The position numbers were made by a program, and so were the translations under genes. A DNA stretch of 60,815 nt, filler included, from Sphacelaria rigidula (Eukaryota), in NCBI GenBank assembly GCA_964200075.2. It is 8 parts of 8 records of this genome, joined end to end, with 100 filler letters (N's around TTAATTAATTAA, not from the genome) between each part and the next. Parts side by side here need not be neighbours in the genome. Positions count along the whole stretch, not along the records: positions 22,846 to 30,359 come from CAXNAA020014554.1; 7 more parts are not named here. One strand, 5' to 3'. The notes below the pieces were generated by a model, which did not search any database, was not told where the DNA came from, and saw only the letters and a list, made by a program, of their open reading frames with translations. Positions 7,516 to 53,381 of this stretch are shown here, in pieces (position 1 is the first letter of the stretch; every line of letters starts with the position of its first letter).

Positions 7516-7615
7516 NNNNNNNNNNNNNNNNNNNNNNNNNNNNNNNNNNNNNNNNNNNNTTAATTAATTAANNNNNNNNNNNNNNNNNNNNNNNNNNNNN
7601 NNNNNNNNNNNNNNN
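7516..7615. other. Artificial contig spacer N44-TTAATTAATTAA-N44
   Basis: Identical 100-bp spacer repeated every 7614-7615 bp; the 12-mer has stops in all six frames. Confidence 0.97.
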
Positions 7616-15130: not shown

Positions 15131-15230
15131 NNNNNNNNNNNNNNNNNNNNNNNNNNNNNNNNNNNNNNNNNNNNTTAATTAATTAANNNNNNNNNNNNNN
15201 NNNNNNNNNNNNNNNNNNNNNNNNNNNNNN
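15131..15230. other. Artificial contig spacer
   Basis: N44-TTAATTAATTAA-N44. Confidence 0.97.
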
Positions 15231-15300
15231 GGCGTTGTATGGCCATTTTTTTCGTGACACTTTTCGCTGGTTTGGGGGGGGGGCTATCGTAGAAAGTGTC
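15231..15300 (-). mobile_element. End of a GACACT-type MITE (same family as 25658-25905), truncated by the contig edge, abutting Copia sequence
   Basis: TTTTTCGTGACACTTTT...GGGGGGCTATCGTAGAAAGTGTC is the reverse complement of the left end of the 25658 element. Confidence 0.85.
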
Positions 15301-18300
15301 ACCGGCTGAACGCAACCTCCTTCGGGTGATAGGCGACCCTGTAGTCGGTGAATTGTCCTCCGTGGTGCTGCCCTCTAGCTGAGCTATACCATCGTCAATA
15401 TTTATGTTGAAGTTGTTGATGTTGTCGTGTTGTTCCTGATCAACTGCAGATACGACGGGTTCCTGGATACCCAAAGTCGAAAAATCTTAATCACTGGAAG
15501 GAGCTCCTGTTACTTGTTCGATGAAAGTCACGTTTCGAGAGCTGGATATTTCCCCCGAGTAGCGGCTGTAAATGCGGTACGATGGACTATCGGAATAATA
15601 CCCTACTGGCACTCCTTCCCAAGCCTTTTCTTCCAACTTACTGTGATGACGCTCCCTGTGCACAAACGCCCTCGAGCCGATGGTCCGCAAGGATGATAGC
15701 TTCGGTTGCTTGAGAAACATTCGAAAATATCGTGTATCGCCGCCGATGCTCGTGTGCGGTAGGCGATTGATAAAAAAGACCGCAGTTGCAGCAATTTCTC
15801 CCCAAAGAAATTTCGGCAAATTCGATTCATTCAGGAGACAACGAGTAACGTTCAAGATGCTCCGCCCGTCTCTTTCGCTGATGCCCTTCTGCTGAGGAGT
15901 ATATGGACTGGTGAACTCTTGGCGGATGCCCGTAGGCTTGCAGTACTTCTTAAAATAGTCCGCGATGTATTCACCCCCACGGTCTGACCGCAGACGGTGT
16001 ACACGGAGTTCTAAAGGAATAGCCAAATCTTGGATGAACCTGCAGAGCGTAGTTAGGGTCTCATCCTTCGTTTTGATGAGTTAGACTACCTTGAAACGCG
16101 AGAAGTGATCCGTAAATTTTGCTATGTAGCGGTAGCCGCCCTGCGCCATAGGCGTGATCGGGCCCGTTAGATCAGTGCTGACTAGTTGCAGTCGTTCCGA
16201 AATACTGGTGGAGTCTACACTCTTTGGATGATCCTGCTGTACACTTTTGTTAAGCTTGCACGCTGCACAAGGTGACAGTGGTCCCTCAAACTTCACACCT
16301 GATTCCGGAATGTTCTGTAGACGGCGCATGACCTGCTCCGTTGGATGTCCAAGTCGCTTGTGCCAAATGTCTGCTCCTGTCGTGGTAGACAAAGCTGTCG
16401 GTTCTGCTCATGGATTCTCTTGACATGATTGTAGCTGTAAATGCTGAGCTGTTCTTAGAATTACCCGTGTGCCGAGAGACTCTCACGCTGATATACTGTA
16501 ACGCTCCGCTGCTGTCACTGTTGATTGGTACTTTAAACTTTCCGAGGTCGATATGGGACTCGTGAGAAAATATTGTCGAAGCTCCCTTTGCAAGAGCCTG
16601 CACAGGGGATAACAGATGCTTCCCCAAACCTGGGACGATTACGGCTGGGAGCCGTACAGCACGTTGATACCCCTCAGAGTCAATAACCACGGTGTTCAGA
16701 ACTCCTTTTGCTGCACCATGAAGTAGATGGCTTCCCGCTGTTAAAGTAGTCATCCGAGGATCGAGTTTGACCAGTTCGACAGTTAGAATTTTGATTCCAG
16801 GTAGCAACTGATCATCGACAAAGTGTCCGGTACTTCCACTGTCCACTATCAACTGGAAAGAAATTCGATCGGATGTATCAGTGGCATGTGAACCAGAGAG
16901 GAAAGAAAATCCCATACCGTTAGGTGGTGATGATGTATCTAACACTGTAGCAGCTGTTGGTAAAATATATTCCAGGCCGTTGTTGTTCGATGGTACGGTT
17001 GTAGAAGCTGGATCCGCGGCGGCTGTGTTGGCTTGGCGTTGATGTCCGTTGGAGTTGCTGCTGCCGATGTTGCTGTTGTGGTAGCTCCTACTGTTGTTGC
17101 TGCTGCTGTCACGGTTGTTATTTCGATGGCGGGGATTTCTGCGACGATGATGGTTATTGTTGTTGTTTCCAGCGTTGCCGGCTGCATTCCCGCTTTCTGT
17201 TGAGATCTACACTCGGTATCATCATGCTTGTCAGTGTGATCGAAACTGCACCACTTTACAGGCCTGCTCCCATTATTTGACTGCATTTGCTAGCGACAGT
17301 CTCTGGCCTGATGTCCTGGTTTCCCGCAGGTGTAGCAAATTCCACGGAATTTCTGGGGTTGATTCAAAGATTTCGACAGTGATGTCACCAGCAGTCATGA
17401 ATCGCGGCCATGCGATTTCCCGGAGGTAAATCCCCGCGCCATGCAATTAGCATACATATTTCGCATTGTTGTTTCGACGCTCTGAATACTGAGATCTGGA
17501 TCACGCTCCGCATTGTACTTGATGAGATCATACTTGCTTGTTAAACCTTCGATCACTATGTCAGTCAGCCTTTCTTCGGAAATGGCCTCGCCAACGTTGT
17601 CCAGTTCGTCCCGAAGCTGATACACTTTGCTCAAGAAAGTATCAGGATCTTGCCCTGGTGGCATAGTGGCGCTGTTGAGTTCTCTCATCAAGATCCTGAT
17701 TCTCTGCTTCGAAGAATTTTGGTACTTGGAAATCAAAGCCTCCCATGCACGTTTGCCGTTTGGTCTCTCTGAACCCTTCGGCTGGAAACGCAACAAATAA
17801 CTCGCTGCAGGACCAGTTGTAGACAGATACAAGACGCGGAACAATTGTTGATTGCATCGGTCCCAACTTTCTATCTCACGCGTGTTAGAAACCCGCCTCA
17901 CATGTGACACCACGCTTGGAGAACGAGATTCTCGTGAAAAATGATGGTCTTCTTCGGTAGATCCAGTCCCATCCACCGCTGCAATCGCCTCGTCCCCAGC
18001 GGTTGCCTCCACCGATGAGAAATGCGGTCGAACGGACGACTGCTGGCGGGTGGTTTGAGAACGAGTTCTAGCAGGGGTAGGTCTTGTGGCAGCTGGTTGT
18101 GGAAGATCTACCTCAGAGAGATCTTTTAATTCCGCGGGGCGTTCGACCCTGTTAAGGATATCCGCAATCCCCGGATGAGTTAAAGAAATGATAGCGCGCG
18201 TGGAGCGCATCTACTCGACGAACTTTGTACCGTCGAACTTCTTGATGCTGTAGATGAGCTGAGTTACAGATGGCTCTCCCGACATATTAATCTGCCTCAC

Positions 18301-19024: not shown

Positions 19025-22000
19025 AAGAGTCAAATGACTGTAAAGCTATCGCCAATCTTGTCAACATATTGCTCGTGTCTTGCATGGAGTAGAGGTACCG
19101 TTGTGCTGCATGATCTGTCACACAAGTGAAATGTCTTCCCTATGACAAGGGTCTCCAGTGTTGTATAGTTAATACAACTGCATAACATTCTCTGCGTGTG
19201 GCAGCGTACTACTGCTGAGCATGATTGAAACGCTGACTGAAATACGCTACGACTGCAGTTTTGCCCTCCTTATCCTGGGTCAGCTTGAATGGTGAACTCC
19301 TTTGAAAAGTCTGGGAAGTGAAGGACAGGTGCGGTGGTGAGAAGCCCTTTTACTTCGGCAAAAGCTGCATCGTGTTCGTGATTCCAGCGTTTTGCTACTT
19401 CCTTGGCTGCCTCTTTTTTCGTTAGATTTACCAACGGGGCGATTACCTGTGCAAGATTCGGAATACATTTTCTCAGCAAATGAATCGTCCCTAACACTGA
19501 ACGTAATTGTTTGATGTTCGTTGGTGTGGGTAAATCTAAGATGGCGTTCCCCCAATTTTGATCCCGTCAGCGGACAAAGTGTAGCCGAGGTACTTGGCCT
19601 CCTTTGGACCAAACTGTGCTTTAGAGGGCTTTAGGGTAAGACCTGCTTTTTTTAGTGCTTTGAAAATTTCTTCCAGTAGAGTGAAGTGACTTTCCCATGT
19701 CGAGGAGCAGGCGATAAAATCATCCATGTGCACCAACAGACCGCTCCTGGGCCCAAAGTGTGACAAAGTCAGAGCCATTATTCGCGAGAAAATAAACGGG
19801 GAAAATGCCAGGCCGAACGGCAGCCTGTTGAAAACCCACTTACCTTTCTCTGTGACAAGACCGTTTTTTCTTTCTTCTCCTCCACTACTGGGATCTGATG
19901 AAACCCGCTCTGTACATCAAAGACAGAGGTGAATTTGGCGCCTGCCACCGTATCTACATGACTTTCCAAATTAGGCATTGGCCATGATTTTCGCACAAGA
20001 CTTCATTGAGCGTGGATCTGTAGTCGACACAAAATCGGGCTGTACCATCATGTATGTTTAGCTACTACTGTCACTGCAGAGCCCCATGGGATTGGCCCTG
20101 TACGGGTTTCGTGCCGAGAAGCAGAGGGAAAGTTGTCTCTCCGATTGTACAAAACCCTAGCTTCCGCTGTGACAGTGAGAAGACTGACCTGTATTTGATG
20201 CATAAATCGAGCACTTGGCTCTTCTGATTTTCAGAAAATGTGGTATCTTTGAATGCATTTTCGAGCGCTGTTGTCAATTCTTCTCGTGCGTCAGTATTTT
20301 GGTGTTCAACTTGTGAAATTGCACTGACGTTTTCCGTCGGGTCTTTTTTTCTCGACTTGTGTGATGTGTCCCATAAGTAAATTTCTTGGGAATTGGACGT
20401 GTCAATTCGACGGGTGTGCTACTTGTACCATAGCTGTTTTGTTGGCCGCTGACCAGGTGCAGGTTGTGCGTGCTACCACGAGGCGGTCAAAGGCATCCGG
20501 TACTTTCTTGCATTGGAGGTCTTCATCCGTTACAATTCATGGCTCAATGACCGCTTCAGTTGTAAATTTTGGCGGCTCATTTTTTTCGACAAGAAGAGCC
20601 ATCTCACTTCGAGGCGGGATGGAGCGCCTTTTTCAGAGGTACACTGGTACATTTTCAGCCGATGCTACTCGTCTGACAGAACAATAATCATGTCCCGAAA
20701 ACGTCGGATGAACGTTTCTGTCTTTTCTTCTGTGAGTAGCCGTGAGGCGAACTGTTGAACTACGAAACGTCAAAGTTTTGCTTGCCGATCGAGAATCCCG
20801 CCAAATACCCTCATTACTGAGATCTATATCAGCATGATGTCTGGCCCGAGATTCCTGAGGACAAATGCTTCGACGGGCAAGGTTATGTCACCCAGCGTGA
20901 GGTCAACGCGAATAAACCCCTTTATCGTGACTGGTGAACCGTTAGCGCTTCGTAGATCAAAAGAACGCGATGGGACTGATTGAATGTGCTCTTCGCTCAA
21001 TGTGGGATGTGAACGGATGAACTTCGAACTACCAATGATCGGGACGTCTGAAGCAGTATTAATGGTTATCGCCGGGACCCCCGTTCCGCTGACTCTGGCG
21101 GGAACCTGCACCTTCCCTGATGCAGGTTGCAACGTTGCCGGCTTCCTAGGATAGCGGGCCAACGAAAACATGAAAAAAGACTCGAATTATGTCGAGCTTG
21201 GGGGCAGAAATTTGGATCCGTGCTTTTTATTAGTATTTTAGAGACGTCTTGCTTACACAAGCAGCTTGGGGGCGATGTCCAGGTGATGATGCCTCCCACG
21301 TAACATCTTATCTTGACCTGTCTTATTCCCCATTTGCTCTTGTCTTCTAGCCTTTGCAACCGCAACCCCTTCCACACGTACTCTCTTACATGACCTCACA
21401 GAAGCTACGCCTTGGCTAGCAAACTGCACACGTTTCTTGCCCTTTTTATTTCCCACCAGAGGGTCGGCACCCATTTCGTGGTGCACAGATTTTTCCCTCG
21501 ATTTTCCGTACTTTTGCGTAACCCGTGCTACCTTAAAACCTCCATCTTTGATAGATTCTACGGTAGTTGCTCTTCTCGCTTCACATACTCGACAGAAATT
21601 TCAGGGTGGCATGATCCGTCACCCAGGTAAAGAATGTCGACCCCCATAAAACGGGGCGCCTTGATGTTTTCTTTTTTACACCCACATATAACACTCCCTG
21701 GGTCTCACAGAGTACTGTCGCTGAGCGTGGTTCAAACGTTGGCTGATATATGTTATGAACGCACCTCGTCGCCTTCTATTAGATCGAAATCGAGCCGGCC
21801 TCTCCCGTTGACGCCTCTGGTTGGATGGCTTTGAAAATTCTGGGAAATTGAGGACCAGTGTGCTCGTCAGAAACCGTTATGTTCTACAAGGCTGCGTCAT
21901 GTTCAGGCTTTAAACGTTTGGCGCTGCGATTTCACTTCCATGAGGTTCGGTATAAGTTCCCTCACGAACGTTATCGTGCCCATCACTGAAAGTAACTGCT

Positions 22001-22745: not shown

Positions 22746-22845
22746 NNNNNNNNNNNNNNNNNNNNNNNNNNNNNNNNNNNNNNNNNNNNTTAATTAATTA
22801 ANNNNNNNNNNNNNNNNNNNNNNNNNNNNNNNNNNNNNNNNNNNN
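22746..22845. other. Artificial contig spacer
   Basis: N44-TTAATTAATTAA-N44. Confidence 0.97.
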
Positions 22846-22909
22846 TCTCATTTGTTGCTTGCCTTAGTCGTTTGACCATTGACCACGCATCCCTTTCGAG
22901 ACGGAGCAC
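22846..22909. mobile_element. Terminal repeat of the GTGCTCC-ended TIR element family (see 59424)
   Basis: CTCATTTGTTGCTTGCCTTAGTCGTTTGACCATTGACCACGCATCCCTTTCGAGACGGAGCAC is nearly the exact reverse complement of 59424-59487. Confidence 0.75.
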
Positions 22910-23505
22910 TCTGGGGGGGGGTAATGTGAAACCTGATTCTCTAGATCTTGTGTGTATAAATCGACTGTGATCTGCTTGCGTGTTATTACCCACATAGCAT
23001 TTTCATTACGAATACAGTACGTATCAATTATTTTTCCCTGTACTGGACGCTGCCTTATTACACAACATTTTCAGTACGAGCACAACAGTACCTATCAATT
23101 GTTTTCCCCTGTATTGCTTCTTCTCCTTCTCGTGTGGAAGGCGGTCCGCGTTCCGACCTGCGACAATACCCACACCCCCTTCCGAGTGACTGCCACCTCC
23201 CTTGAAGTCGCTGGTCTGTTCGCGTGCTGTTTTACCGTCTCAGTGTCACTTGTTTCTCACTCTAGCTTGCTAAATTAGAACGGCGCATGAATTCTCATTA
23301 TGCTCCTCTTCCATCATAACCAAGGAAAAGAAGAAACGAAAATTGGAAGCGCGATGCAAAGCAGAGCAATCAATGCCAAAAACAGACAACAAGGATGATC
23401 CGGGAGGGTAGAACCACACGCTGGGCTCCCTCATACGTCATACACCCAGTCATGACACAATCCGACAATCCGATAATCCGATACCGCACACAATATCCGG
23501 TACCC

Positions 23506-23971
23506 AACACTATATTCGTGAGATTCAGAGGGTAGTTTCAGATTCAGAGTCAGACCCGAAACAATCGACTTTCCCGTCGATTTTGACATCGCCACAGTTC
23601 GAGGAGTAATGCACCCAGCTGGTGAAGCCGTGGCTTCAATGAAAGCTTTCACCTACACGATCAATTTGACACATTACTTGATCGCAACGACGTAGTCAGT
23701 CCATTGCAACAAAAGATCCCCTCTTTCAGGAAAAATCGATTAGTGCCTGAAACAGTTTCAGTTCCGAAATGCCCCCGCAGGCGTAAAAATGCATTGTGCG
23801 GTATCTCACCAACCAGACGGCCGACTTCCTCGAATGGGGTACTGTACGGTAGCTGCATGCACAGGACGTGTGCTCAAGCAAAAATAAATGAAAAAAGTTG
23901 CCTGTTAGGAACGCTAGAGCATCCACTCTGAATCTGAAACTACCCTCTGAATCTCAAGAAAATATAGTGTT
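23506..23971. mobile_element. 466-bp MITE with AACACT termini and 4-bp TSD ACCC, probably inside the 3' LTR of Copia 2
   Basis: ~45-bp TIRs AACACTATATTCGTGAGATTCAGAGGGTAGTTTCAGATTCAGAGT and ACTCTGAATCTGAAACTACCCTCTGAATCTCAAGAAAATATAGTGTT; ACCC at 23502-23505 and 23972-23975. Confidence 0.88.
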
Positions 23972-25657
23972 ACCCGTGATACATTATCAATCTGCCCTGC
24001 ATGTACCCGAATTAAGTCACGTACACATATGCACTAGTGTTGAGCTCGGCAACATCCAATCAGCCCTCCTTGTCGAGGCTTAACCCTGCTCATATCATGC
24101 ATAATTATCTTAATTCCATCCCATGAAATAACAGAAACTCTCACAGCACGAATGCCGTGATACACGGAAGACTCAGCAAAAACAAATAAAGCCATCAAGG
24201 GGAATGACCTCCTAAATTATATGCCCCCCTGACCCCATATTACCTCACCATGTTCGGGAGCAAAAAGTATCAACTCTCGGGACGTGTTTTTCCAAAAATC
24301 TACCAAGAAAATCGTACTCTTCTTACCACGGAAATCAAAAGATGTTCACGACATAGTCACGGTGGAATTCAATGCACTCTGCCGGTAAAACCTTCGTATA
24401 AAAATCGGCATGCTGGTACTCAGATCTGACATGAAAATGGAAATATCCCCTCTTCCCACTAATTCCCTGATGGAATGATATTTTACATCGATGTGCTCAG
24501 AGTTGGAGTTTGATAAGGGGTTCTGTGCCATTTGAGTAGCACCCTGATTGTCCTCGAACATCGGGATACATGATTCTCCGACTTCAGGCAGCATGAGCTC
24601 CCACACCTGTCTCGAAAACAGCACCTCCTTCATCAAATCGGTCATTGCAACGTATTCTTCTTCTGCAGTCGACAACGTCACACACTTTTGCGTCCTTGAG
24701 AACCATGACACACATCCACCCCCGCACATCACTAGTCCATCCGACACTGATCGCCTATCGGTAGCCTTACTCGTGTAGTCTGCATCAGCATATGCTTGAA
24801 AGCTGAGACCTTGCAAATTGCCTCGCCGAAAAGTAATACCCGATGTACTCGTTCGCCTAACATACTCAAGTATACCACGAGCAGTACGCCAATGAATTAT
24901 CCTTGGGGATGCGCAATACCTCGCTACCGCTCTCACTGCGTTACTAATATCCGATCTGGTCTGGTTTGCTAGCCATCTAAGTGACCCCACCAATTCTCTG
25001 AATGGGAACGTCATGATCTGCTCATCCTCATTGAAATCCTCGAGTTTGACACCTGCACTCATAGGCGTCTTAGTCCTCCATGATATATTTTGCTCCTCCG
25101 CCAACTCCTCTGCAGAAGTCTGTAACGATACATTAAGGTCCCTCCACTCCAAATCTCTCTCGTATTATAGTCTCGAATACCATCGCAGTTCTCCTAAATT
25201 CTTGACTGGAACCATTTTGTTTAGTTGCTTACCACACCCGTCACACCTTTCCTCATCCCCTACGACAAAGATATCATCTAGACTACTTATACCACCAATG
25301 TGATCACTACCTTGTTGTCCTCCATTAGTCGGAACACTCACGAATCTGCCAAACACTGATCAAAACCTAACTTCTTCAGGCATCCTGCTAAACGAAAATC
25401 TCATTGTCTCGAAGCCTATCGGAGTCGATGGAGCGATTTGTTGAGTCTCCCTACCTTACCAGATAAGTTACCACAGCCATGAGGCAAACGCATAAAAAAA
25501 TCTTCGTCCAGTACTGACTGCACAAAAGCTTGCTCGATATCGAAATGGCGCAACGAAAGATTTTGCTCACAAGCAAGTGCTGTCAGCAACCGTACACTCG
25601 AAACCGATACTGTAGGTGCATACAATTCACCAAAGTCAATATCTGCCCGTTGTCGAT

Positions 25658-25905
25658 GGCACGTTCTACGATAGCCCCCCCCCAAAACCAGCCCAAAAGT
25701 GTCACGAAAAAAAAGCCATACAGCGCCTGATGTTTGGGTTCAGGCTGCACGAAGCACCTCATATTGGCGACATTTGCTAGAACGAACCCAAGCGTCGGAA
25801 CTCCCAGCCGCTCATTGTGCCCGGCTTTTCCATTTCGATTCACGTGAAGGTTTTGCCTCCCAAACCCATGCACTTTTGGGGGGGGGGGCTATCGTAGAAA
25901 GTGTC
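25658..25905 (+). mobile_element. 248-bp MITE with G(A/G)CAC termini and 4-bp TSD CGAT, inserted in Copia 2 RT
   Basis: TIRs GGCACGTTCTACGATAGCCCCCCCCCAAAA and TTTTGGGGGGGGGGGCTATCGTAGAAAGTGTC. Removing it plus one CGAT restores the RT frame ARGDRQRADIDFGE. Confidence 0.93.
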
Positions 25906-26549
25906 CGATCTCCCCTTGCGACCAGTGTTGATTTTCCTTTCGTTGGCCACCCAAACTCATCAACCTTCCAGTTGTATACCCACTTCGCGGGAAAAATATC
26001 AACTACTGATTGCTATATTGCCGCATCCATGGTTCCCGCTTCCTTCAGGCCTCGAAACTCTCGCGCCATGGAGTCCACCCATCCTCCTCCCTGTTATGGG
26101 CGTGTTGCTCCAGCATATGTTTTTGAGGTTTCCAACTCTTTCACTGGGCGATGGGGCAGTTTAGGTGGTTCATGCGGCGGACGTACCCCCTCTTTCGCTG
26201 TGTTGATGTCCTCGCGCGTTGTCATCGTAGTCGCAGTCCGATATTGCGAACCCTTGCGCTCCACTGCCCCATCACCCCGTCGCTTTCTTCCGGCCTCTAT
26301 TACGGACCGCGTGAGGTGGGCTGATAAAAGGGGTGGTTTGTCGAGCTGCGCAAAAAGACCCCTCTCATCACGAATGAGTGCGATGTTGTCGCCCCGCTCC
26401 TTCTCAGCTGTATGCTGGGCCGTCTCCGATTGGGTCCTCCCCGGTTGCCGAGGGTTACTACTCAGGTCCAGCTCCTTCGCCGCCTTGTCGGGCAACTGTG
26501 ATATATAGAAGGGTATAGACAGGTTCCACACCTTCCTAGGTATGATCAA

Positions 26550-29500
26550 TGTGCTGCAAGCTTGGGTAGATGCGCAAACGCGCTAGGTGTCCGAGTAAAA
26601 CAAGCTGCAAATGCACACGAGCAGATTCACGTGACTGTTGGTCACAGTAGCAACAAACAAAGGGAGCTCAAAGGCTTGATATCTTTTCAACTCTCACTGG
26701 TTATTCCCTTGATCGCCCAGCACACTGTTCTCACCAATGGTGAACAGTAGGAGCAGATGTTCCGGCCGGCTCGAAGGGTAGCTCAAGAGTGAGCGAGGGG
26801 TGCATGAGGCACGATAGAGCAACCTATTTTTGAACTCGGCCCGAGAAGGCGTTTCGCCTCCCCGGGACTAGGGCACACCAATCTGTACACTAATCTTCCC
26901 GAGCTAGGGTAAACCAGCCTGTACACCAATCTTCCTAGAGCTATGGGAGCATTCCCCGTGGACATATCGAATGATCTGTAAGCCAACCTGCCCCGAAGTT
27001 ATCTGTGGGAACAAATAACGCCTCTCTATCTTCCTTCCTCATGATACTCACCCACCCAGACGAACCTCTATTTGGGTTGCGATGAAATCTCAGGAGCAAC
27101 TAAAATTGAGGCTTGTCTCACCCATCAAGTCATGAGGAGACAACGCGAAAAAGAAAAGAAAAACAAGAGGGCAATGACCAGCCTGGTGCCCGATCCTTCC
27201 ATACCTCAAAGAAGAAAACCAAAGGTGCCTCAAAAAGCGCGATTACGCAATTGCGGTTGACTGCGCAGGAGCACACAATGCTGCTGTGAGCTAGCGAACA
27301 AACGGAAAAAGCACACCATGCTTGGACGCGCTAGCTAGATGAAAAGCAAAGCAAAACCCCGCAAAGGACACAGTGGTAATTTCAAGCAGGAGACAATACT
27401 TGAAGACCCGAATAGGGTCGAGTGTCAGCCAGACAAAGTGGCGGCAGCGTAGGGGCCAATGGAAGAGGGCGAAGGGGTCCAGAAGAAGTCGTCGAAGAGA
27501 TCGATGAGGGCAGAGATGAGCCGCGATAGGAGAGCCAGCGCAGGTGAAGCAGTGAAGAGCAGAGCGTACCTGAGGGGGGACGAAGGAAGGACCAGAACCA
27601 AACTGGGAGGGGAGACACAAATCGCGTTAAAAGGGAGTACGAAGAGATAGAACTCAAGATGGTGCATTGATGTCGTGTGTACGATCGATATTGCGCTGAA
27701 GACCTCGATGTAAGCCGTGTGACTTGAAGCGTTGTAGGCACCAGAAACTGCGGGGTGCGGAAGGGCTGGTCGTGTAAAAATCGGGGCGAAGCTTGAGCGG
27801 AACTGAGCCAGGATCGTCGAGGAAATGCACGATGTACGTGTCGACCGCGAGGGCATCGACGGAGTGGATCTGACCTAGCCACCAGAGGTAATCGCTGCCC
27901 TTATACCACAAGTAAGCACATTTAGGGAGCGGTTGTTGTTTTGCGCGAAGTTTTTCGTCCCATTGTTTGGTGAGTACAAGTTCGTAACCATCGGCTACAA
28001 AACGTAGTCCTTTGTCGCGGTGGAGTTCGCGGGCTGCGGCGCCGTGTCTCATGTTGCGATATCCCTTGTTGTCAGCAAGCTGTTGCTGTGGGGATTGTGT
28101 CCAATAGAGAAGGATGGCACGACGGTGCAGTTGAAGGTCGGACTCGCGTTCCCAAGACGCACGCCGAAGACCTTGCCAGTGTGTCTTGTACATGACAGCT
28201 ATTTTGCCACCAGGGCCTCGAGTGATTTGGTGGCCGGAAATGTGGGACACGGCCAAGCGGAGAGGTTGTTCAGTCACGTCATCGGTGGTAACGTGGTAAG
28301 GCGTGGATTTTGTTGAGTAGCTGTTAAGCATGTATTGGGTGAGACCTGCAGGCAGGTATTGAGGCATGTCCGTGGTGTCATGCGGATTCGTGCAGCGCTT
28401 GTAACGATGCACAGAGACGCGAGATTTAGCGTCGTGCCCCTCGAGGTCACGAGGTAAATCAAGGTAGAGGACTTTGTCGCCAACGGGCTTGCCGTCAGGA
28501 GATGTCGACGAGGGTCCGACTATGACAATCTTGAACGGACTCGTCCAATTGAGGGACAGTCTGGTCTTCAAGACTGCTGCCTGGGCAGCACGGTCAGCGC
28601 CTTGACGGATGGTGGATAAACTATTGTAGATCCAGACCCAATCGCCGATTTTCCAAGTAGGACGTTTGTGCATCAAGTTGTAAAGGGCACTATTGAATCT
28701 TTCAAGGCGTGAGACGTTGATAGCGTGTTGTTCGCGCACCAAGGTGAAAGCTTTGTGCTGACGAGCCCTGGCGAGGTCGTGGTAGGATATCTGATCCTGT
28801 TCCAGACCTTGGTGACCATCGAAGGTATGTCGTTCGAAAACGGTGATGGGCAGATGAGGGTAGCGTCCAAGATGCAGCTCGTTGGGCGAGAGGCCCGTAG
28901 CCGCGTTAGCCGAATTGTTGTAAGACAACATGACATGCGAGAGATGAAGATCCCAATCATTTTGTCGGTCGTTTACGACCATGGATAGCATTTGAGCCAT
29001 CGTGTGGTTCACACGGTCAGTCCCACCGTTACCGTTAGGGTGGTAGGCGCTCGTGGCAATTTTGCGAATGCCGAGGAGCTTGTACAAATTATCCGAGAGT
29101 TCGGAGCAAAATTGTTGACCATTGTCGGAGAGGAGCCGTTTTGGGCAGCCATAGTGCTTAATGTAGTCATAGACGAGAATGTCCGCTGTGCCGGCAGCAG
29201 TGATATCGCTAGCCGTGACAGCATACATAGCTGCGTGACGGCTGAAGCGGTCGGTGAAGAGTAGAATGTGGGTATTACCACGGTCAGTTGAGGGTAAAGG
29301 GCCGAAGTAGTCGAACGATACGAAGTGACCAGGAGCGTTTGGAAGCTCCATGGAAATCACCGGCCATCGCACAGTCTGTCGAGAGGGTTTGCGAGCCTGA
29401 CATTTGAAACATCGGCGGCCCCAAAAACGCGTGGATGCTTCCATGCCAATCCACCAATAAAAACGTTCAAGGAGCGCTAATGTGCGCGTGACGCCTAAGT

Positions 29501-30359
29501 GGCAGGACAAATCAGAGTGACGGCCTTTCATGACCCACGGGCGCATCATGATAGAGACATAGATGCGAATTGGGGCGTCATGACGCATAAGTGCCGAAGC
29601 GGCAGTTGTTACTGCGGCAGCCGTGCCCAATTGGGATTTGGATCGACGAACAAGCAGATCAACGTCCTCGTCAGTCGTGAAGACGGTACCTTTGCGTGCC
29701 AGCTCGAGCACATCAGAGGCGGCGGGGACGGGTACAGGGCCTACGGTGGGCAGTTAAGCCTCAAGTACCGCATTGTCGCACGACAGAGCGGGTCTTGTTG
29801 TTGATCGCGAGCCCAATCGTGGTGAGAGTAGCTAGCGAGAAATTCCCGAAGTTGGCCTTCAGCCAGAGAGCCAACCAGGCACGGAAGATTCCCAGAAGAC
29901 GGCGTGGGCGTAGCGCGAACTGGTAAACGCGATCGGCGCGTTGGGCGCGCAAGGGGCGCGGGCGGTGTTGGTACAACACTGGGCACACGGCCAGTTGTTG
30001 GAGGCGTGGTACGGTCCGTGGGGGCACAAGGCGGCGGCGGCGGCGGCGGCGGCGTATTGCTACGCGCGGCCGGCGATGGTGGCGGCATCACAGCCTGCGA
30101 AGAATTGGCACGAGCTGGCGACCGAGAGCGCGTGTTGTCGGAGATGAGGTGAACAGTAGGTGGTGGCGGCGCCGAGATATTCGCGCGAGGGCCGAGAGTG
30201 CGGAAGTCGGCAAAATCAGCAGCTGTGTGCGCTAAGCCATCCAAGACTGTATCAGGGGGTAGAGGGCGGGGGCCACCCATGTGCAGACCTGTTTCGGGGC
30301 ATTGCAGGTCGAGCGCGTAGATGGGCGTAGAAAAACGCCGGATGGGGTAGACGCCTGGT
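26550..30359 (-). mobile_element. Ty3/Gypsy (chromovirus-like) retrotransposon 2, 3' half, abutting or inserted in Copia 2; candidate 3' LTR 26550-27013
   Basis: Pro-rich tether, integrase ORF, purine tract GAGGAAGGAAGATAGAGAGG shortly before TGTTCCC, and end GCAGCACA where Copia sequence resumes. LTR limits are tentative. Confidence 0.8.
27654..29711 (-). CDS. Gypsy integrase with HHCC zinc domain, catalytic core, GPY/F-like region, chromodomain and an extra C-terminal module; cut off from upstream pol by a stop and frameshift near 29740
   Basis: HSDLSCHLG...CFKC; DYFGPLP; LLSDNGQQF; AYHPNGNGGTDRVN (D at the catalytic E position); LNWTSPFKI; ISGHQ...YKTHWQG...SWERESDL. Confidence 0.92.
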   Translation of the reverse strand: MLELARKGTVFTTDEDVDLLVRRSKSQLGTAAAVTTAASALMRHDAPIRIYVSIMMRPWVMKGRHSDLSCHLGVTRTLALLERFYWWIGMEASTRFWGRRCFKCQARKPSRQTVRWPVISMELPNAPGHFVSFDYFGPLPSTDRGNTHILLFTDRFSRHAAMYAVTASDITAAGTADILVYDYIKHYGCPKRLLSDNGQQFCSELSDNLYKLLGIRKIATSAYHPNGNGGTDRVNHTMAQMLSMVVNDRQNDWDLHLSHVMLSYNNSANAATGLSPNELHLGRYPHLPITVFERHTFDGHQGLEQDQISYHDLARARQHKAFTLVREQHAINVSRLERFNSALYNLMHKRPTWKIGDWVWIYNSLSTIRQGADRAAQAAVLKTRLSLNWTSPFKIVIVGPSSTSPDGKPVGDKVLYLDLPRDLEGHDAKSRVSVHRYKRCTNPHDTTDMPQYLPAGLTQYMLNSYSTKSTPYHVTTDDVTEQPLRLAVSHISGHQITRGPGGKIAVMYKTHWQGLRRASWERESDLQLHRRAILLYWTQSPQQQLADNKGYRNMRHGAAARELHRDKGLRFVADGYELVLTKQWDEKLRAKQQPLPKCAYLWYKGSDYLWWLGQIHSVDALAVDTYIVHFLDDPGSVPLKLRPDFYTTSPSAPRSFWCLQRFKSHGLHRGLQRNIDRTHDINAPS

Positions 30360-30459
30360 NNNNNNNNNNNNNNNNNNNNNNNNNNNNNNNNNNNNNNNNN
30401 NNNTTAATTAATTAANNNNNNNNNNNNNNNNNNNNNNNNNNNNNNNNNNNNNNNNNNNN
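30360..30459. other. Artificial contig spacer
   Basis: N44-TTAATTAATTAA-N44. Confidence 0.97.
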
Positions 30460-30643: not shown

Positions 30644-33503
30644 CGCAATGTGAAGAGAAGTCGTACCACTGTCGGAGGCCTTCTGCGCATCGGCCCCCGC
30701 GGCGAGCAAAGCCGACACAAGCTCTTCACTTCCCGAGACCGCGGCCAAGTGTAGCGGGCATCTCGACTTCCTGTCTCGAGCATGAGGGTCGGCGCCGGCG
30801 AGCAGCAGCACTCTCGCCACATCAACCTGTGAAGTGTTTTTTCATTCTTGTTAGTTTTTTTTGTACTTCGAACGAAAAAACAAACTGAGAGACGGATGCC
30901 GGTCTGATTCTAGTCCGCCATTTGGGGTGTAAATGAACACATATATATATATATATATATGCGTGTGTCGGATGCTCTACTTCAACTGAGTAGTATCATA
31001 TCATACTCCCCGTCTCCTCATACGCGGTCGGGTGGTTGAGGGGTCGCAGAAACAGCAATGGTCATCCTCCAGAACGGCGGTGTGAGTTTTGGAAACAGGC
31101 TTTAAAAGCGTTCTTCATGCAGTCAAACTACGATGGTCATGGTGACGATCTCGATTTCAGGAGGTGTTCTTCCAACATTTCTCAGCAAGTGATCATACGC
31201 CATAGTGACCACACACACACACACACACACAATTTGCAGGTGCGCGATCAACCAAAATTAAAATTAACCACAACCAATATCACAGCTACTCCTCCCACTT
31301 ACCATGTTGCGCAGGCAAAGTGGAGGAAGGGGGCTCTCCCCAACTCCCAACCCGGCTTCCCCCAACCCATGGTTGAAATTGCTTTGTTCTTGCCAAATCC
31401 CAATGCCAACCCTTGGTTTAAGTTTTTGCGTAACCCTGAGGCTAACCCTAACAACCCAAAGCACATCGAGAAGTCTGAGCCAACAGCGATGCATACAGTG
31501 TCCTAGGCTTTCACCCTACGGTTTCGCGGGTTGCAAGCTGAAATTTTCCACACCCTGGACAAGATATGGTCAATAGATGCAATGCACATAAAATATACTG
31601 GGTAAAGAATAGGCCTGTTACAACTATTGTCGATTGTCGATTGCAACTAGTGTCGACAATAGTTGCGATAGGCCTAAAATTCACCCAGTACATTTTTGGT
31701 CTATTGCATCCATTGACCATATATTGTCCAGGGTGCGAAAGTTTCACAGCCGCCTGCCTAGACGCAACACCGAGGCCGTGATTGTTGTTCATTTATCTTC
31801 ACTACCTTCATCTCAACACAAATGCATTAATATGCCGTCTCAAGAAAAGCAAAGTTGTTTCAAGAAGAGTAGTGATGTGACATCGCCGTTGCGCACCTCA
31901 ACTAACTGGGGATGTCCGTCTCCTCTGTGGAGGCGCTTTTGTTTCGCAGATTGAGTCTTCGGACCCCAGTCCGTTGGGGCGGTGTTTCTCGGGTAGTTGA
32001 AATTTGATTCATTATTTGGTTGATTGTCCCACGTTGACTGACCCCCTACGAGTCATGATCCAGCCACGGTCATTATCCACAAGACTGACGTACCCGAGAC
32101 AAAAAAACAAGACTGAAGCACGCGCTGAAGAGAATGTAGAAAAAAACAGAAAGGCAGAACAGACCAACGAGTAGAGTAAGAAAAAAAAAGAAAGTGAAGA
32201 ACACAACAGAAAACAGAACAAAGAACTGGACATTGACCATTGGTCATGTTGTAGTAACAGATTTGGGTCGCCGATCTGTTTCTGGAACACAAATCGGCGG
32301 GCTCGGGGCTAATTGCAATTCAACCAAGACGGTGAAATTATCATTGGTCAACGTCCCGAGAATCAGATTATCCGTTTTTTTTCAATACGATGGCAGAAGT
32401 CACGAGTGCCTGCCGTTTTTCTCCCCACAACTAATCGAGAAATAATTATCAATCCGTTGGGGGTAGGTATGGGATTTCAAAATACCGGATTGGGCGGGTA
32501 GGAGTGCGCTAAAATGAAAAAATCAAAGATTCACTGTCATAGCTGTCGAACGTTCCTTATCGAGAAAATATCACGGAAAAAAATTACGAACAAGAGCACA
32601 GACAGGGAGAAGAACCACCAGTATTGCCCGACTAACCTGTCCGGCTGCGCAAGCCAAGTGCAGAGGCGTCATCCCCTGGGCGTTGCGCGTGCGCAGGTCG
32701 GCCGAAGTATCGACCAGAGCCCTGGCAACTGACCACGTATCCACACCGGATGTTTCAAGCCAAACGGATACCGCAAGGAGGGTAAACGAAACGCCGTCTA
32801 GAGGGGGTGTACATATTCTGCGCAGCCAGCTTTTGGATGCAGCTCGCCGGTGACCAGGTGGGGTGCCAGTAGCGGGAGATAGCATCGCCGACGATGGCAA
32901 TGACGATCGGAGCGGAGGGGTTGGAGAAATGGGGACGCTTTGAGTGACGTTGTCGCTGTTGACCTTCGTGTCTGAAATATGACTTTGTCGTTGTCGTTGT
33001 TCTTGCTGTTGCTGCGCCATGAACAAGTCAGCAGTAGCGCCCGCTTCAACCTTCGGGTGTTGTAGTTGCTGCTGCTGTCGCTGCGGTATGCACATTTCGA
33101 CTCTCTCTTGCTGCCGTTGCTGTTGTTGTGATCGAACTCTACTCGCAGCCATCGCCAGCAGGTCATTCATTGATGCTGGCGACACAGGCTCCGTCATCTG
33201 CGAGCGCGATGCCGGCTGCTGCTGCTGCTGCTGAGGCTGTTGTTTTGGCGGGCTGACGTTGTAGTGTTCGCGGTTCAATGGTGGCGATGTTGCTTGTTCC
33301 AAGAATGAAATTGGAGAACGGGCGCCCACGGTGACTACTTCCACAACGTCCGTGGTGGTTCCACAAGAGGCAGCGGGGCGGTGGGTCTGTCTACTTGTGG
33401 AAGCCGGGCGGTCAGCGGAGGAGTGTGTGTGGTGTGGATGCCGTCGGTGCACGCCGTTTGAGTGGTGAAATGGGAACACGCATCGGTTGTGCCCCATCAT
33501 CAT
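30644..33503 (-). CDS. Partial spliced ankyrin-repeat protein gene with a Q/S/P-rich region. Exons ~33503(or 33603)-32637 and 30826-30644
   Basis: ADLRTRNAQGMTPLHLACAAGQ (donor GTTAGT) joins in phase 0 to VDVARVLLLAGADPHARDRKSRCPLHLAAVSGSEELVSALLAAGADAQKASDSGTTSLHIA (acceptor CAG, donor GTGAG). Confidence 0.88.
31539..31746. repeat. Long imperfect inverted repeat (foldback, ~90-bp arms) in the ankyrin gene intron
   Basis: CACCCTGGACAAGATATGGTCAATAGATGCAAT...ACTGGGTAA...TAGGCCT...CAACTATTGTCGA pairs with TCGACAATAGTTG...AGGCCTA...CCCAGTA...ATTGCATCCATTGACCATATATTGTCCAGGGTG. Confidence 0.85.
32015..32095 (-). repeat. Dispersed repeat resembling a non-LTR retroelement 3' end with an AATC-like tail; related pieces near 36975-37000, 46640-46705 (opposite strand), 50140-50205 and 53100-53130
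   Basis: Shared TTGATTGTC(C/G)CAC(G/T)TT(A/G)ACTGA and CATGATCCAGCCA motifs. Classification is inference. Confidence 0.45.
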
Positions 33504-33928
33504 TTGTTGCTGTCTCCGTTGCTCTTCGTGCTTCTGCTGCTGCTGAAGTGATATGCGGCTGCTCTTTGGTCTTTTGCTCGTGCGGTAGCCAAGACTCGGG
33601 TTTCTGCGTTATTATTGCTGTGATGTATCGGTATGGTCGGCGGTGGAGGGAGCGGTCGAAGGGGGTTGCAGTCATCAGGAATAATGCATCTGAGAAAATG
33701 AAACACGTTCAATCATGGTATGGAATGTCATCATTTGCGTGAGAAGATTGCGCAGTTCAAACTTGGAGCTCATACTGTTGCTGAACGCTGAACGCTTTTT
33801 GATACAGTATAGAAAATGCAGGCAAGCATCGCAGAAGCAAGGTAGATTGCTAAATCAACATCAAGACTTCCCGTGTTGGACCTTCGGTGTGAAGCCGGTC
33901 CAGAATAGATGGGATGGCCACGCAACAC

Positions 33929-37973: not shown

Positions 37974-38073
37974 NNNNNNNNNNNNNNNNNNNNNNNNNNN
38001 NNNNNNNNNNNNNNNNNTTAATTAATTAANNNNNNNNNNNNNNNNNNNNNNNNNNNNNNNNNNNNNNNNNNNN
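37974..38073. other. Artificial contig spacer
   Basis: N44-TTAATTAATTAA-N44. Confidence 0.97.
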
Positions 38074-45587: not shown

Positions 45588-45687
45588 NNNNNNNNNNNNN
45601 NNNNNNNNNNNNNNNNNNNNNNNNNNNNNNNTTAATTAATTAANNNNNNNNNNNNNNNNNNNNNNNNNNNNNNNNNNNNNNNNNNNN
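45588..45687. other. Artificial contig spacer
   Basis: N44-TTAATTAATTAA-N44, preceded by a long poly-C tract at the contig end. Confidence 0.97.
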
Positions 45688-53201: not shown

Positions 53202-53301
53202 NNNNNNNNNNNNNNNNNNNNNNNNNNNNNNNNNNNNNNNNNNNNTTAATTAATTAANNNNNNNNNNNNNNNNNNNNNNNNNNNNNNNNNNNNNNNNNNN
53301 N
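53202..53301. other. Artificial contig spacer
   Basis: N44-TTAATTAATTAA-N44. Confidence 0.97.
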
Positions 53302-53381
53302 CGAACATCAGGCGCTATATGGCCATTTTTTTCGTGACACTTTTAGCTGGTTTGGGGGGGGGGGCTATCGTAGAAAGTGTC
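53302..53381 (-). mobile_element. End of a GACACT-type MITE at the contig edge, abutting the satellite
   Basis: AACATCAGGCGCT...TTCGTGACACTTTT...GGGGCTATCGTAGAAAGTGTC matches the 25658 family. Confidence 0.85.

Follow-up and report, generated by a model that had tools for sequence, protein, structure and literature searches.

Integration-site choice decides how a retrotransposon and its host coexist, and the fusion of a chromodomain to the integrase (IN) is a textbook cis-encoded targeting device. In chromoviruses the chromodomain, of group I in MAGGY and Tf1 and of group II in plants, follows the GPY/F module of the Ty3/gypsy integrase as a fused domain. The chromodomain of MAGGY binds H3K9me2/3, and this binding is thought to direct integration (PMC3350952). 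In the brown alga Ectocarpus, four Gypsy lineages have been described, all with chromatin-reader domains (PMC12477816; Genome Biol 2025). According to the accessible text of that account, three of these lineages have putative C-terminal chromodomains, to which lineage IV (for example Gypsy-12_Ec32) adds an N-terminal NADAR domain, while the fourth, comprising Gypsy-10_Ec32 and a Tribonema homologue, carries a C-terminal Tudor domain and was called the first transposable element (TE) reported with one. A broad survey of fusions between TEs and chromatin domains deals mainly with Chromo and PHD, as far as its accessible text goes (10.1101/2021.11.30.470311). In this study, a Ty3/gypsy integrase open reading frame (ORF) was analyzed in a 60,815-nucleotide stretch of DNA from Sphacelaria rigidula (GCA_964200075.2; the whole stretch is called the window here), the C-terminal extension of which is predicted to place a Tudor-like barrel behind a chromodomain.

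In the accessible text of two papers, brown algae are described as lacking DNA methylation and H3K27 methylation, with H3K9 methylation absent or sporadic (PMC12477816; PMC13076208), and Ectocarpus is specifically reported to be without H3K9me1/2/3 and H3K27me3 (PMC12477816). The marks described there are H3K36me3 on active genes, and H3K79me2 and H4K20me3 in association with repression and repeats (PMC12477816; PMC13076208). With DNA methylation and PRC2 lost and H3K9 methylation reported as absent or nearly so, the ligand of Gypsy chromodomains in these hosts is of particular interest.

The preferred reading, held with moderate confidence, is that the window contains the 3' portion of a slightly decayed, high-copy brown-algal Ty3/gypsy retrotransposon of the long-terminal-repeat (LTR) class with the order NADAR-(PR)-RT-RNaseH-spacer-IN (PR, protease; RT, reverse transcriptase), and that its composite extension is most likely a chromatin-tethering module. 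Judging from the aligned relatives, the chromodomain, a two-helix linker and the barrel form a natural, selected end of Pol in a NADAR lineage.

By its sequence, the ORF is that of a Ty3/gypsy integrase and contains the H2C2, rve and GPY/F modules (Table 1). A Pfam scan of the 699-residue protein returned the first two of these alone at E<=1, while the GPY/F module was recognized from its core, which reads WTSPFKI in the window copy and WTGPFKI in the family consensus. The consensus of the whole module (GGWVWVYNS...LSLNWTGPFKILAVGP, invariant columns) includes an invariant P406 and K408. Furthermore, alignment of the protein with residues 1484-2146 of a full-length Pol (P0010) shows 51% identity over 670 aa. 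An earlier note on this DNA had proposed a Gypsy integrase with core and GPY/F region, and the peptides that it quoted all lie in one minus-strand frame. A label of chromovirus is unwarranted, as the RT tree in PMC12477816 places the brown-algal chromodomain Gypsy lineages outside both the chromovirus and Chronos clades, on the evidence of the text available. Between the GPY/F module and the chromodomain lies a further conserved motif, RVSVxRCKPCxNPHD (residues 445-459, ~28377-28421, minus strand), with two near-invariant cysteines, the first of which is replaced by tyrosine in the window copy.

The reading frame stays open for 145 aa beyond the chromodomain, close to the ~150 aa estimated previously, and runs to the stop codon. 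The last 220 residues (P0009) were modeled with AlphaFold2 (AF2) from an alignment of 101 sequences, giving a pLDDT of 88.5 and a pTM of 0.78. The chromodomain in this model consists of strands 23-33, 39-47 and 54-57 followed by helix 58-73, with pLDDT values of 90-96. In VIA, a structural search independent of Foldseek that covered 48,161 chains, tail residues 18-77 matched the chromodomains of Chp1 (Z 6.8, rmsd 1.5 A over 53 residues), HP1 (Z 6.4, 1.5 A over 51) and Polycomb (Z 6.0, 1.6 A over 49). The chromo-like segment that had been proposed at ~28125-28260 is thus borne out by the predicted fold. The linker that follows contains helices 84-101 and 116-124 of the model (pLDDT block means 85-96) and a conserved pattern, N..YR.MR.GAA.RE..R..G.RF...GY.LV.

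The barrel is predicted to comprise strands 135-139, 145-153, 160-165, 171-175 and 192-197, and a separate AF2 model of the last 137 residues agrees with this (pLDDT 87.3, pTM 0.74). With the barrel model as query, the best ten Foldseek matches were all Tudor domains of PHF1 or PHF19 (probability 1.00, E 0.009-0.015), with an rmsd of 1.9-2.4 A over 45-47 columns and 24-28% identity. VIA gave a similar picture: 33 of the 50 matches listed for the barrel were by title Tudor, extended-Tudor, Agenet, PWWP, MBT, chromo-barrel or SAWADEE domains, including PHF19 (Z 5.9, 2.1 A over 56 residues), RDM15 (Z 5.9, 2.0 A over 56), TDRD3 (Z 5.7) and SMN (Z 5.1, 2.4 A over 55), with the AGDP3 Agenet domain (Z 5.5 and 5.1) level with many Tudors. 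Sequence profiles led to the same relatives. Profile A2, compared with all PDB sequences at E<=10, matched PHF19 or PHF1 Tudors in nine of ten cases (best E 0.0054) and the Swi6 chromodomain in the tenth (E 0.18); with profile A4, nine of ten matches were again PHF19 or PHF1 (best E 0.009). These two profiles overlap and their scores are marginal, at E 0.0054-0.013 for PHF19 and 0.46-1.1 for PHF1. The shallow profile A3 found the Drosophila Pcl Tudor first (E 0.67), followed by the MPP8 and Swi6 chromodomains and two unrelated entries. The known domains closest to the barrel are therefore the Polycomb-like Tudors, by marginal scores. A search of the BFVD viral fold library yielded only high-rmsd phage proteins or small generic barrels and nothing meaningful, and a search of the ESM Atlas yielded only sub-threshold chromodomain look-alikes (0.79-0.81), which do not bear on the barrel.

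Conservation of the extension was assessed at several depths. Seven proteins of similar length align to the last 220 residues with 48-53% identity and 95-100% coverage; conservation among them reaches the WCLQ motif, and each protein ends 20-35 residues beyond it. When the part after the chromodomain alone (residues 545-699) was compared with 1.84 billion cluster representatives, 242 matched at E<=1e-3, 77 at <=1e-10 and two at <=1e-30. In the 101-sequence alignment, strong conservation is seen at W616 (85/99), Y617 as Tyr or Phe (85/100), D621 (84/99), W624 (84/99), W625 (87/99), G627 (85/98), F644 (78/99), D646 (82/99), P648 (87/98) and W671 (69/85); further conserved positions belong to F644-L-D-D-P-G, Y660 and W671-C-L-Q. 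Rates of change were compared among the window copy and three intact loci (six locus pairs), with pN set against pS instead of dN/dS because synonymous sites are saturated. For the barrel, pN was 0.24-0.36 and pS 0.67-0.77, with a similar pN in the chromodomain (0.10-0.30), whereas the last 22 residues are near neutrality, pN being about equal to pS in two of the six pairs. The barrel thus appears from these alignments to be under purifying selection.

These data bear directly on the possibility that the stretch beyond the chromodomain is a non-functional read-through, a frame left open by chance in a dead copy. The state of the window copy speaks for it, with a frameshift near 29741-29753, an Asp in place of the catalytic Glu and private changes at conserved sites. 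However, the 242 representatives, the strong column conservation and a pN well under pS exclude it, the AF2 fold is confident, and the same tail ends intact Pol ORFs of 2170-2386 aa, so that this explanation is very improbable. Since the tail is conserved and its pN lies below pS, it is taken as a selected part of Pol. The checks proposed in the earlier note, folding the last ~200 residues and comparing the tail among copies, gave a well scored model with PHF1/PHF19 Tudors ranked first and a tail in which W616, W624 and W625 are each kept in at least 84 of 99 aligned sequences.

Several results nevertheless weigh against the assignment of two reader domains. Pfam Chromo (PF00385) had no match in the window protein at E<=10, and in four of the seven relatives it reached 13.5-17.2 bits, short of the gathering threshold of 25.1; none of eight proteins had a match to a Tudor or Agenet family of Pfam at E<=10. 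Foldseek gave no match at E<=0.001 in the PDB with either the 220-aa or the 137-aa model, and for this reason its contribution to the barrel argument rests on ranking and not on E-value. In VIA, the top entry for the barrel was a bacterial TraI SH3-like domain (Z 7.0), generic SH3-type folds (R67 DHFR, KOW, Pelota) were level with Tudors, and for neither the chromodomain nor the barrel did Z reach as high as 8, the structural scores being middling. By aligned positions, the canonical binding pockets also appear incomplete. The methyl-lysine cage of a classical chromodomain is formed by Y24, W45 and Y48, according to the text available of PMC3350952; only one of these three aromatics is kept here, W526 at the W45 position, with L, V or M at the Y24 position and L or I at the Y48 position in all eight aligned proteins. 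Profile alignments to Swi6 and MPP8 were also used to place these positions. For the barrel, correspondences were taken from an ungapped HMMER alignment to PHF1, the trimethyl-lysine cage of which consists of W41, Y47, F65 and F71 (PMC7492083, accessible text). Aromatics are found at two of the four sites: Y47 corresponds to W625 (Trp in 87/99) and F65 to F644 (Phe in 78/99), while W41 corresponds to G619 (Ala, Gly or Ser in 82/100) and F71 to S650 (Pro in 77/95).

As far as the same source describes, W41A, Y47A and F65A each abolish binding by PHF1, MTF2, which is without the fourth aromatic, binds weakly, and D67 contributes to recognition (PMC7492083). The residues aligned with PHF1 D67 and D68 are kept as D646 and D647. 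In addition, three conserved aromatics not counted above, W616, Y617 and W624, lie where beta1 ends and beta2 begins, adjoining the cage-aligned positions; given a beta1-beta2 loop longer by two residues, they could complete a pocket. With W45 alone retained, the chromodomain resembles, at the level of sequence, those of group II or of shadow type, the ligands of which are poorly known. On balance, the fold assignments of the modeled tail, a chromodomain followed by a Tudor-like barrel of the Royal family, are considered sound as predictions, and a reader function for both domains is plausible but unproven, and their canonical pockets are incomplete by alignment. Of the Tudor/Agenet-like module noted previously at ~27733-27920, the Tudor-like barrel is supported by the AF2 model and, with marginal scores, by Foldseek and the profiles; the AGDP3 Agenet domain is level with Tudors by fold, and Pfam gave no Agenet match. 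Likewise, an SH3/Tudor-like fold is predicted, but cage aromatics are present only at one of three positions in the chromodomain and two of four in the barrel.

The incomplete cages leave room for two other explanations of a selected extension. The barrel may be an SH3-like domain that binds nucleic acid or has an architectural role, amounting to a second integrase C-terminal domain (CTD); it would contact target or viral DNA or RNA, or stabilize the intasome, with the chromodomain as scaffold. Retroviral integrase CTDs are SH3-like DNA binders, and this explanation gains from the missing residues at the PHF1-aligned positions, from the first place of the TraI domain in VIA, where an ssDNA-bound PWWP domain (Z 5.9), KOW and the UvrD/PcrA C-terminal domains were also level with Tudors, and from the pTM of the two-domain model, which suggests a rigid unit. 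We nevertheless consider it unlikely, since the barrel profiles (nine of ten matches each with A2 and A4) found Polycomb-like Tudors and no DNA-binding SH3 folds, Foldseek ranked PHF1 and PHF19 in all of its best ten places, and W616, Y617, W624, W625, F644 and D646/D647 fall in the region of Tudor cages, where beta1 ends, beta2 begins and beta3 ends. Moreover, the element already has a canonical CTD in its GPY/F module.

Alternatively, both domains may be protein-protein surfaces that tether the integrase to a host chromatin protein and not to a histone modification, in the manner of the Ty5 integrase, which is tethered to Sir4. In favour of this alternative, both cages are degenerate; chromodomains without Y24 and Y48 resemble the shadow and group II types, the ligands of which are often proteins or unknown (PMC3350952, text available), and the loss of H3K9me1/2/3 and H3K27me3 reported for Ectocarpus removes the usual chromodomain ligands (PMC12477816, text available). 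It lacks a known partner, however, and the conserved acidic FLDD beside aromatics is typical of methyl-ammonium pockets, as with D67 of PHF1 (PMC7492083, text available); it is judged rather improbable.

Returning to chromatin tethering by histone recognition, we infer that the extension binds chromatin, that a particular mark is bound and that this binding has a role in guiding targeting. In the mechanism envisaged, the extension would hold the intasome on nucleosomes bearing a particular histone feature, and such tethering would bias integration sites in the way that chromoviral chromodomains do; the chromodomain and the barrel might act together. By analogy with these systems, the tandem module probably helps the integrase to choose its insertion site in chromatin. 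A more specific version, which we regard as doubtful, is that the chromodomain, linker and barrel constitute a rigid bivalent reader retuned to the unusual repressive chromatin of brown algae (H3K79me2 and/or H4K20me3 on islands rich in TEs, for example), steering integration into repeats that are already silenced. If true, this would be the first case of a tandem histone reader encoded in cis on a retrotransposon integrase, and it would offer a ready-made probe of reader specificity in this lineage. A conserved high-copy lineage that stacks a Tudor barrel of the Polycomb-like type behind a cage-poor chromodomain suggests that the element solved the ligand problem by a composite reader. The extension supplies two small, foldable domains open to direct peptide-array study with H3K36me3, H3K79me2 and H4K20me3.

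LEDGF/p75 tethers HIV-1 integrase through its PWWP domain, a Royal-family barrel that links the integrase to marked nucleosomes; the analogy is functional, as the reader in that case is a host protein bound by the integrase, whereas here it is fused in cis. In comparison with chromovirus integrases, with which it shares a chromodomain behind GPY/F, the window integrase adds 145 residues forming a second domain; the W45-only cage pattern of its chromodomain is like that of plant group II chromodomains (PMC3350952, text available). The Polycomb-like Tudors (PHF1, PHF19, MTF2 and Pcl) have a similar five-strand barrel, at ~2 A over 45-56 residues and 24-28% identity, and share the D-G-L-aromatic-aromatic-L-G-K-I and V-x-F-x-D-D motifs with the window barrel. 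The latter differs in an 11-residue insertion before beta5, in its N-terminal helices and in having no aromatic at the positions of PHF1 W41 and F71 in the ungapped alignment. The contexts also differ, the window barrel belonging to a retrotransposon and the Polycomb-like Tudors to PRC2 accessory proteins, and PRC2 is described as absent from brown algae (PMC13076208, text available).

The closest described elements are those of Ectocarpus. Lineage IV shares its layout with the relatives of the window element (YbiA-type NADAR, RT, RNaseH, IN and chromodomain) as well as brown-algal hosts, but its accessible text gives a chromodomain only and leaves a Tudor-like barrel unmentioned, so that the window element is set apart by description and not by sequences or figures. 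Gypsy-10_Ec32 is likewise a Ty3/gypsy Pol from a stramenopile alga that ends in a Tudor-superfamily domain; there, however, the Tudor replaces the chromodomain and is detectable by CDD cd20401, whereas the window barrel follows a chromodomain and escapes Pfam, again as compared by description from the text available. In full-text literature searches, an integrase with chromodomain plus Tudor was described in none of the papers listed, and the only directly relevant paper was PMC12477816. The tandem arrangement therefore appears to be undescribed so far, although fusions of reader domains to Gypsy integrases, one Tudor included, are already known. Since the accessible text of PMC12477816 reports a Tudor-carrying Gypsy, albeit of another lineage, the idea is less new than the earlier note assumed; the finding extends the 2025 account of the NADAR-Gypsy lineage, the available text of which names the chromodomain only (PMC12477816).

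Complete relatives indicate what lies upstream. P0010 is a Pol of 2170 aa with NADAR at 38-186, RVT_1 at 723-881, RNaseH at 975-1079 and IN at 1537-1710, and bears the same tail at its extreme C-terminus, the alignment reaching residue 2146 of 2170. A scan of metagenome contigs gave 37 stretches that fit the pattern, of which five were confirmed; L004 (one ORF of 2386 aa) and L001 (adjacent ORFs) have the order NADAR-RT-RNaseH-IN-tail. The YbiA-type NADAR domain at the Pol N-terminus was found at E 1.2e-44 in P0010, 1.9e-45 in L004 and 1.8e-52 in L001. In all three, a spacer of ~400 aa without a Pfam match separates RNaseH from IN, and the corresponding 200 codons in the window are Pro-rich. 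The NADAR domain and the RT-RNaseH-IN order are thus seen in relatives, the window copy being cut before the NADAR region; RT is absent from view upstream of the integrase because the piece of DNA ends at 30359, ~600 nt upstream of the integrase. A standalone integrase, a Ginger-like DNA transposon and a Polinton integrase were also considered and were rejected in view of this cut and of the relatives with RT-RNaseH fused upstream. Direct repeats (LTRs) flanking the element were found neither within the piece at 22846-30359 nor in L001.

Two sequencing runs of the host (X1 and X3) each gave ~2000-2500 short contigs of 90-99% identity that span all of 27300-30359, including 350 nt 3' of the stop, with differences that are mostly transitions. 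From the number and coverage of these contigs in both runs, the family is taken to be a high-copy repeat. Public runs that contain the stretch are labelled with a single organism and, in one study, as 'algae metagenome'. The two relatives that carry an organism name, Nemacystus decipiens (EukProt) and Pylaiella littoralis (NCBI), are both from brown algae, in keeping with the type of host considered previously. Two gene models are of unusual composition: in P0017 (373 aa) TIMP and WSC domains are combined with the Tudor-like module, and in P0003 (Nemacystus) the integrase is joined to an N-terminus that resembles a membrane protein. Both are probably chimeric gene predictions running into TE fragments.

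The window copy itself departs from the family at conserved sites. The catalytic Glu codon (29016-29018), just past the rve domain, is GAC (Asp), while the position is Glu in six of the six relatives that cover the column, and every aligned contig of X1 and X3 has T at 29016, giving GAA (Glu). Similarly, the conserved Pro650 is Ser (27804-27806, minus strand) and Ser670 is Phe (27744-27746, minus strand) in the window copy, while all aligned contigs of both runs have G at 27806 (Pro650) and G at 27745 (Ser670), the family residues. The active lineage of the family keeps the catalytic Glu, Pro650 and Ser670. The DD35E core is, on the alignment, intact in the family, and the Asp at the Glu position appears to be a mutation of the window copy. 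The window leader (DWARDQQQDP...YLRL) aligns to the N-termini of P0002 and P0005 and lies in another frame than the integrase, which places a frameshift near 29741-29753; the frameshift and the three odd sites together identify the window copy as a family member in decay.

Table 1. Positions in the window of the element's modules, a neighbouring fragment and the linkers.
Feature	Position	Strand	Details
Integrase ORF (P0001), 699 aa	27654-29753	-	Single open frame; stop codon 27654-27656
Pro-rich spacer and integrase leader (...SYSHHDWARDQQQDPLCRATMRYLRLNCPP*), ~200 codons	29741-30359	-	Frame differs from integrase ORF
H2C2 zinc-binding domain, residues 70-124	29382-29546	-	Pfam PF17921 Integrase_H2C2, E 1.4e-11
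rve catalytic core, residues 139-239	29037-29339	-	Pfam PF00665, E 2.5e-08
GPY/F module, integrase C-terminal SH3-like region, residues 365-415	28509-28661	-	GDWVWIYN...WTSPFKIVIVGP
Chromodomain (predicted), residues 497-554	28092-28265	-	AF2: three strands and C-terminal helix
Structured linker (predicted), residues 563-603	27945-28067	-	AF2: two helices and short strand
Tudor-like five-strand beta-barrel (predicted), residues 607-677	27723-27935	-	YLWYKGSDYLWWLGQI...YIVHFLDD...FWCLQ; AF2
C-terminal tail, 22 aa, poorly conserved	27657-27722	-	pLDDT 50-73
Ty1/copia RT-RNaseH fragment, 5'-truncated, separate from the Gypsy element	24346-25739	-	Pfam and ORF reading
Linkers	7516-7615, 15131-15230, 22746-22845, 30360-30459, 37974-38073, 45588-45687, 53202-53301		N44-TTAATTAATTAA-N44

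Eight pieces of ~7.5 kb make up the window, with N44-TTAATTAATTAA-N44 linkers, one per ~7614 nt, between them, and because it is such a concatenate, features on separate pieces are not necessarily genomic neighbours. On the piece that bears the integrase, the earlier note had the element abutting another retroelement, which is roughly right: a Ty1/copia RT (RVT_2, E 6.1e-17) lies at 25419-25739, 1.9 kb 3' of the integrase stop and on the same strand. The adjacent ORF at 24346-25164 (minus strand) reads as RNaseH in translation, Pfam giving no family for it. Short stretches around 25654-25734 recur where two other pieces begin, at 15231-15304 and 53304-53379. On another piece, ORFs at 15487-18210 (minus strand) resemble gag, protease and integrase of Ty1/copia, and at 19306-20349 (minus strand) a weak RT fragment of gypsy type matches residues 595-970 of P0010. 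Finally, a Gln-rich ORF at 32571-33608 (minus strand) has a C-terminal ankyrin repeat (Ank_4, E 1.4e-05) and is possibly a fragment of a host gene.

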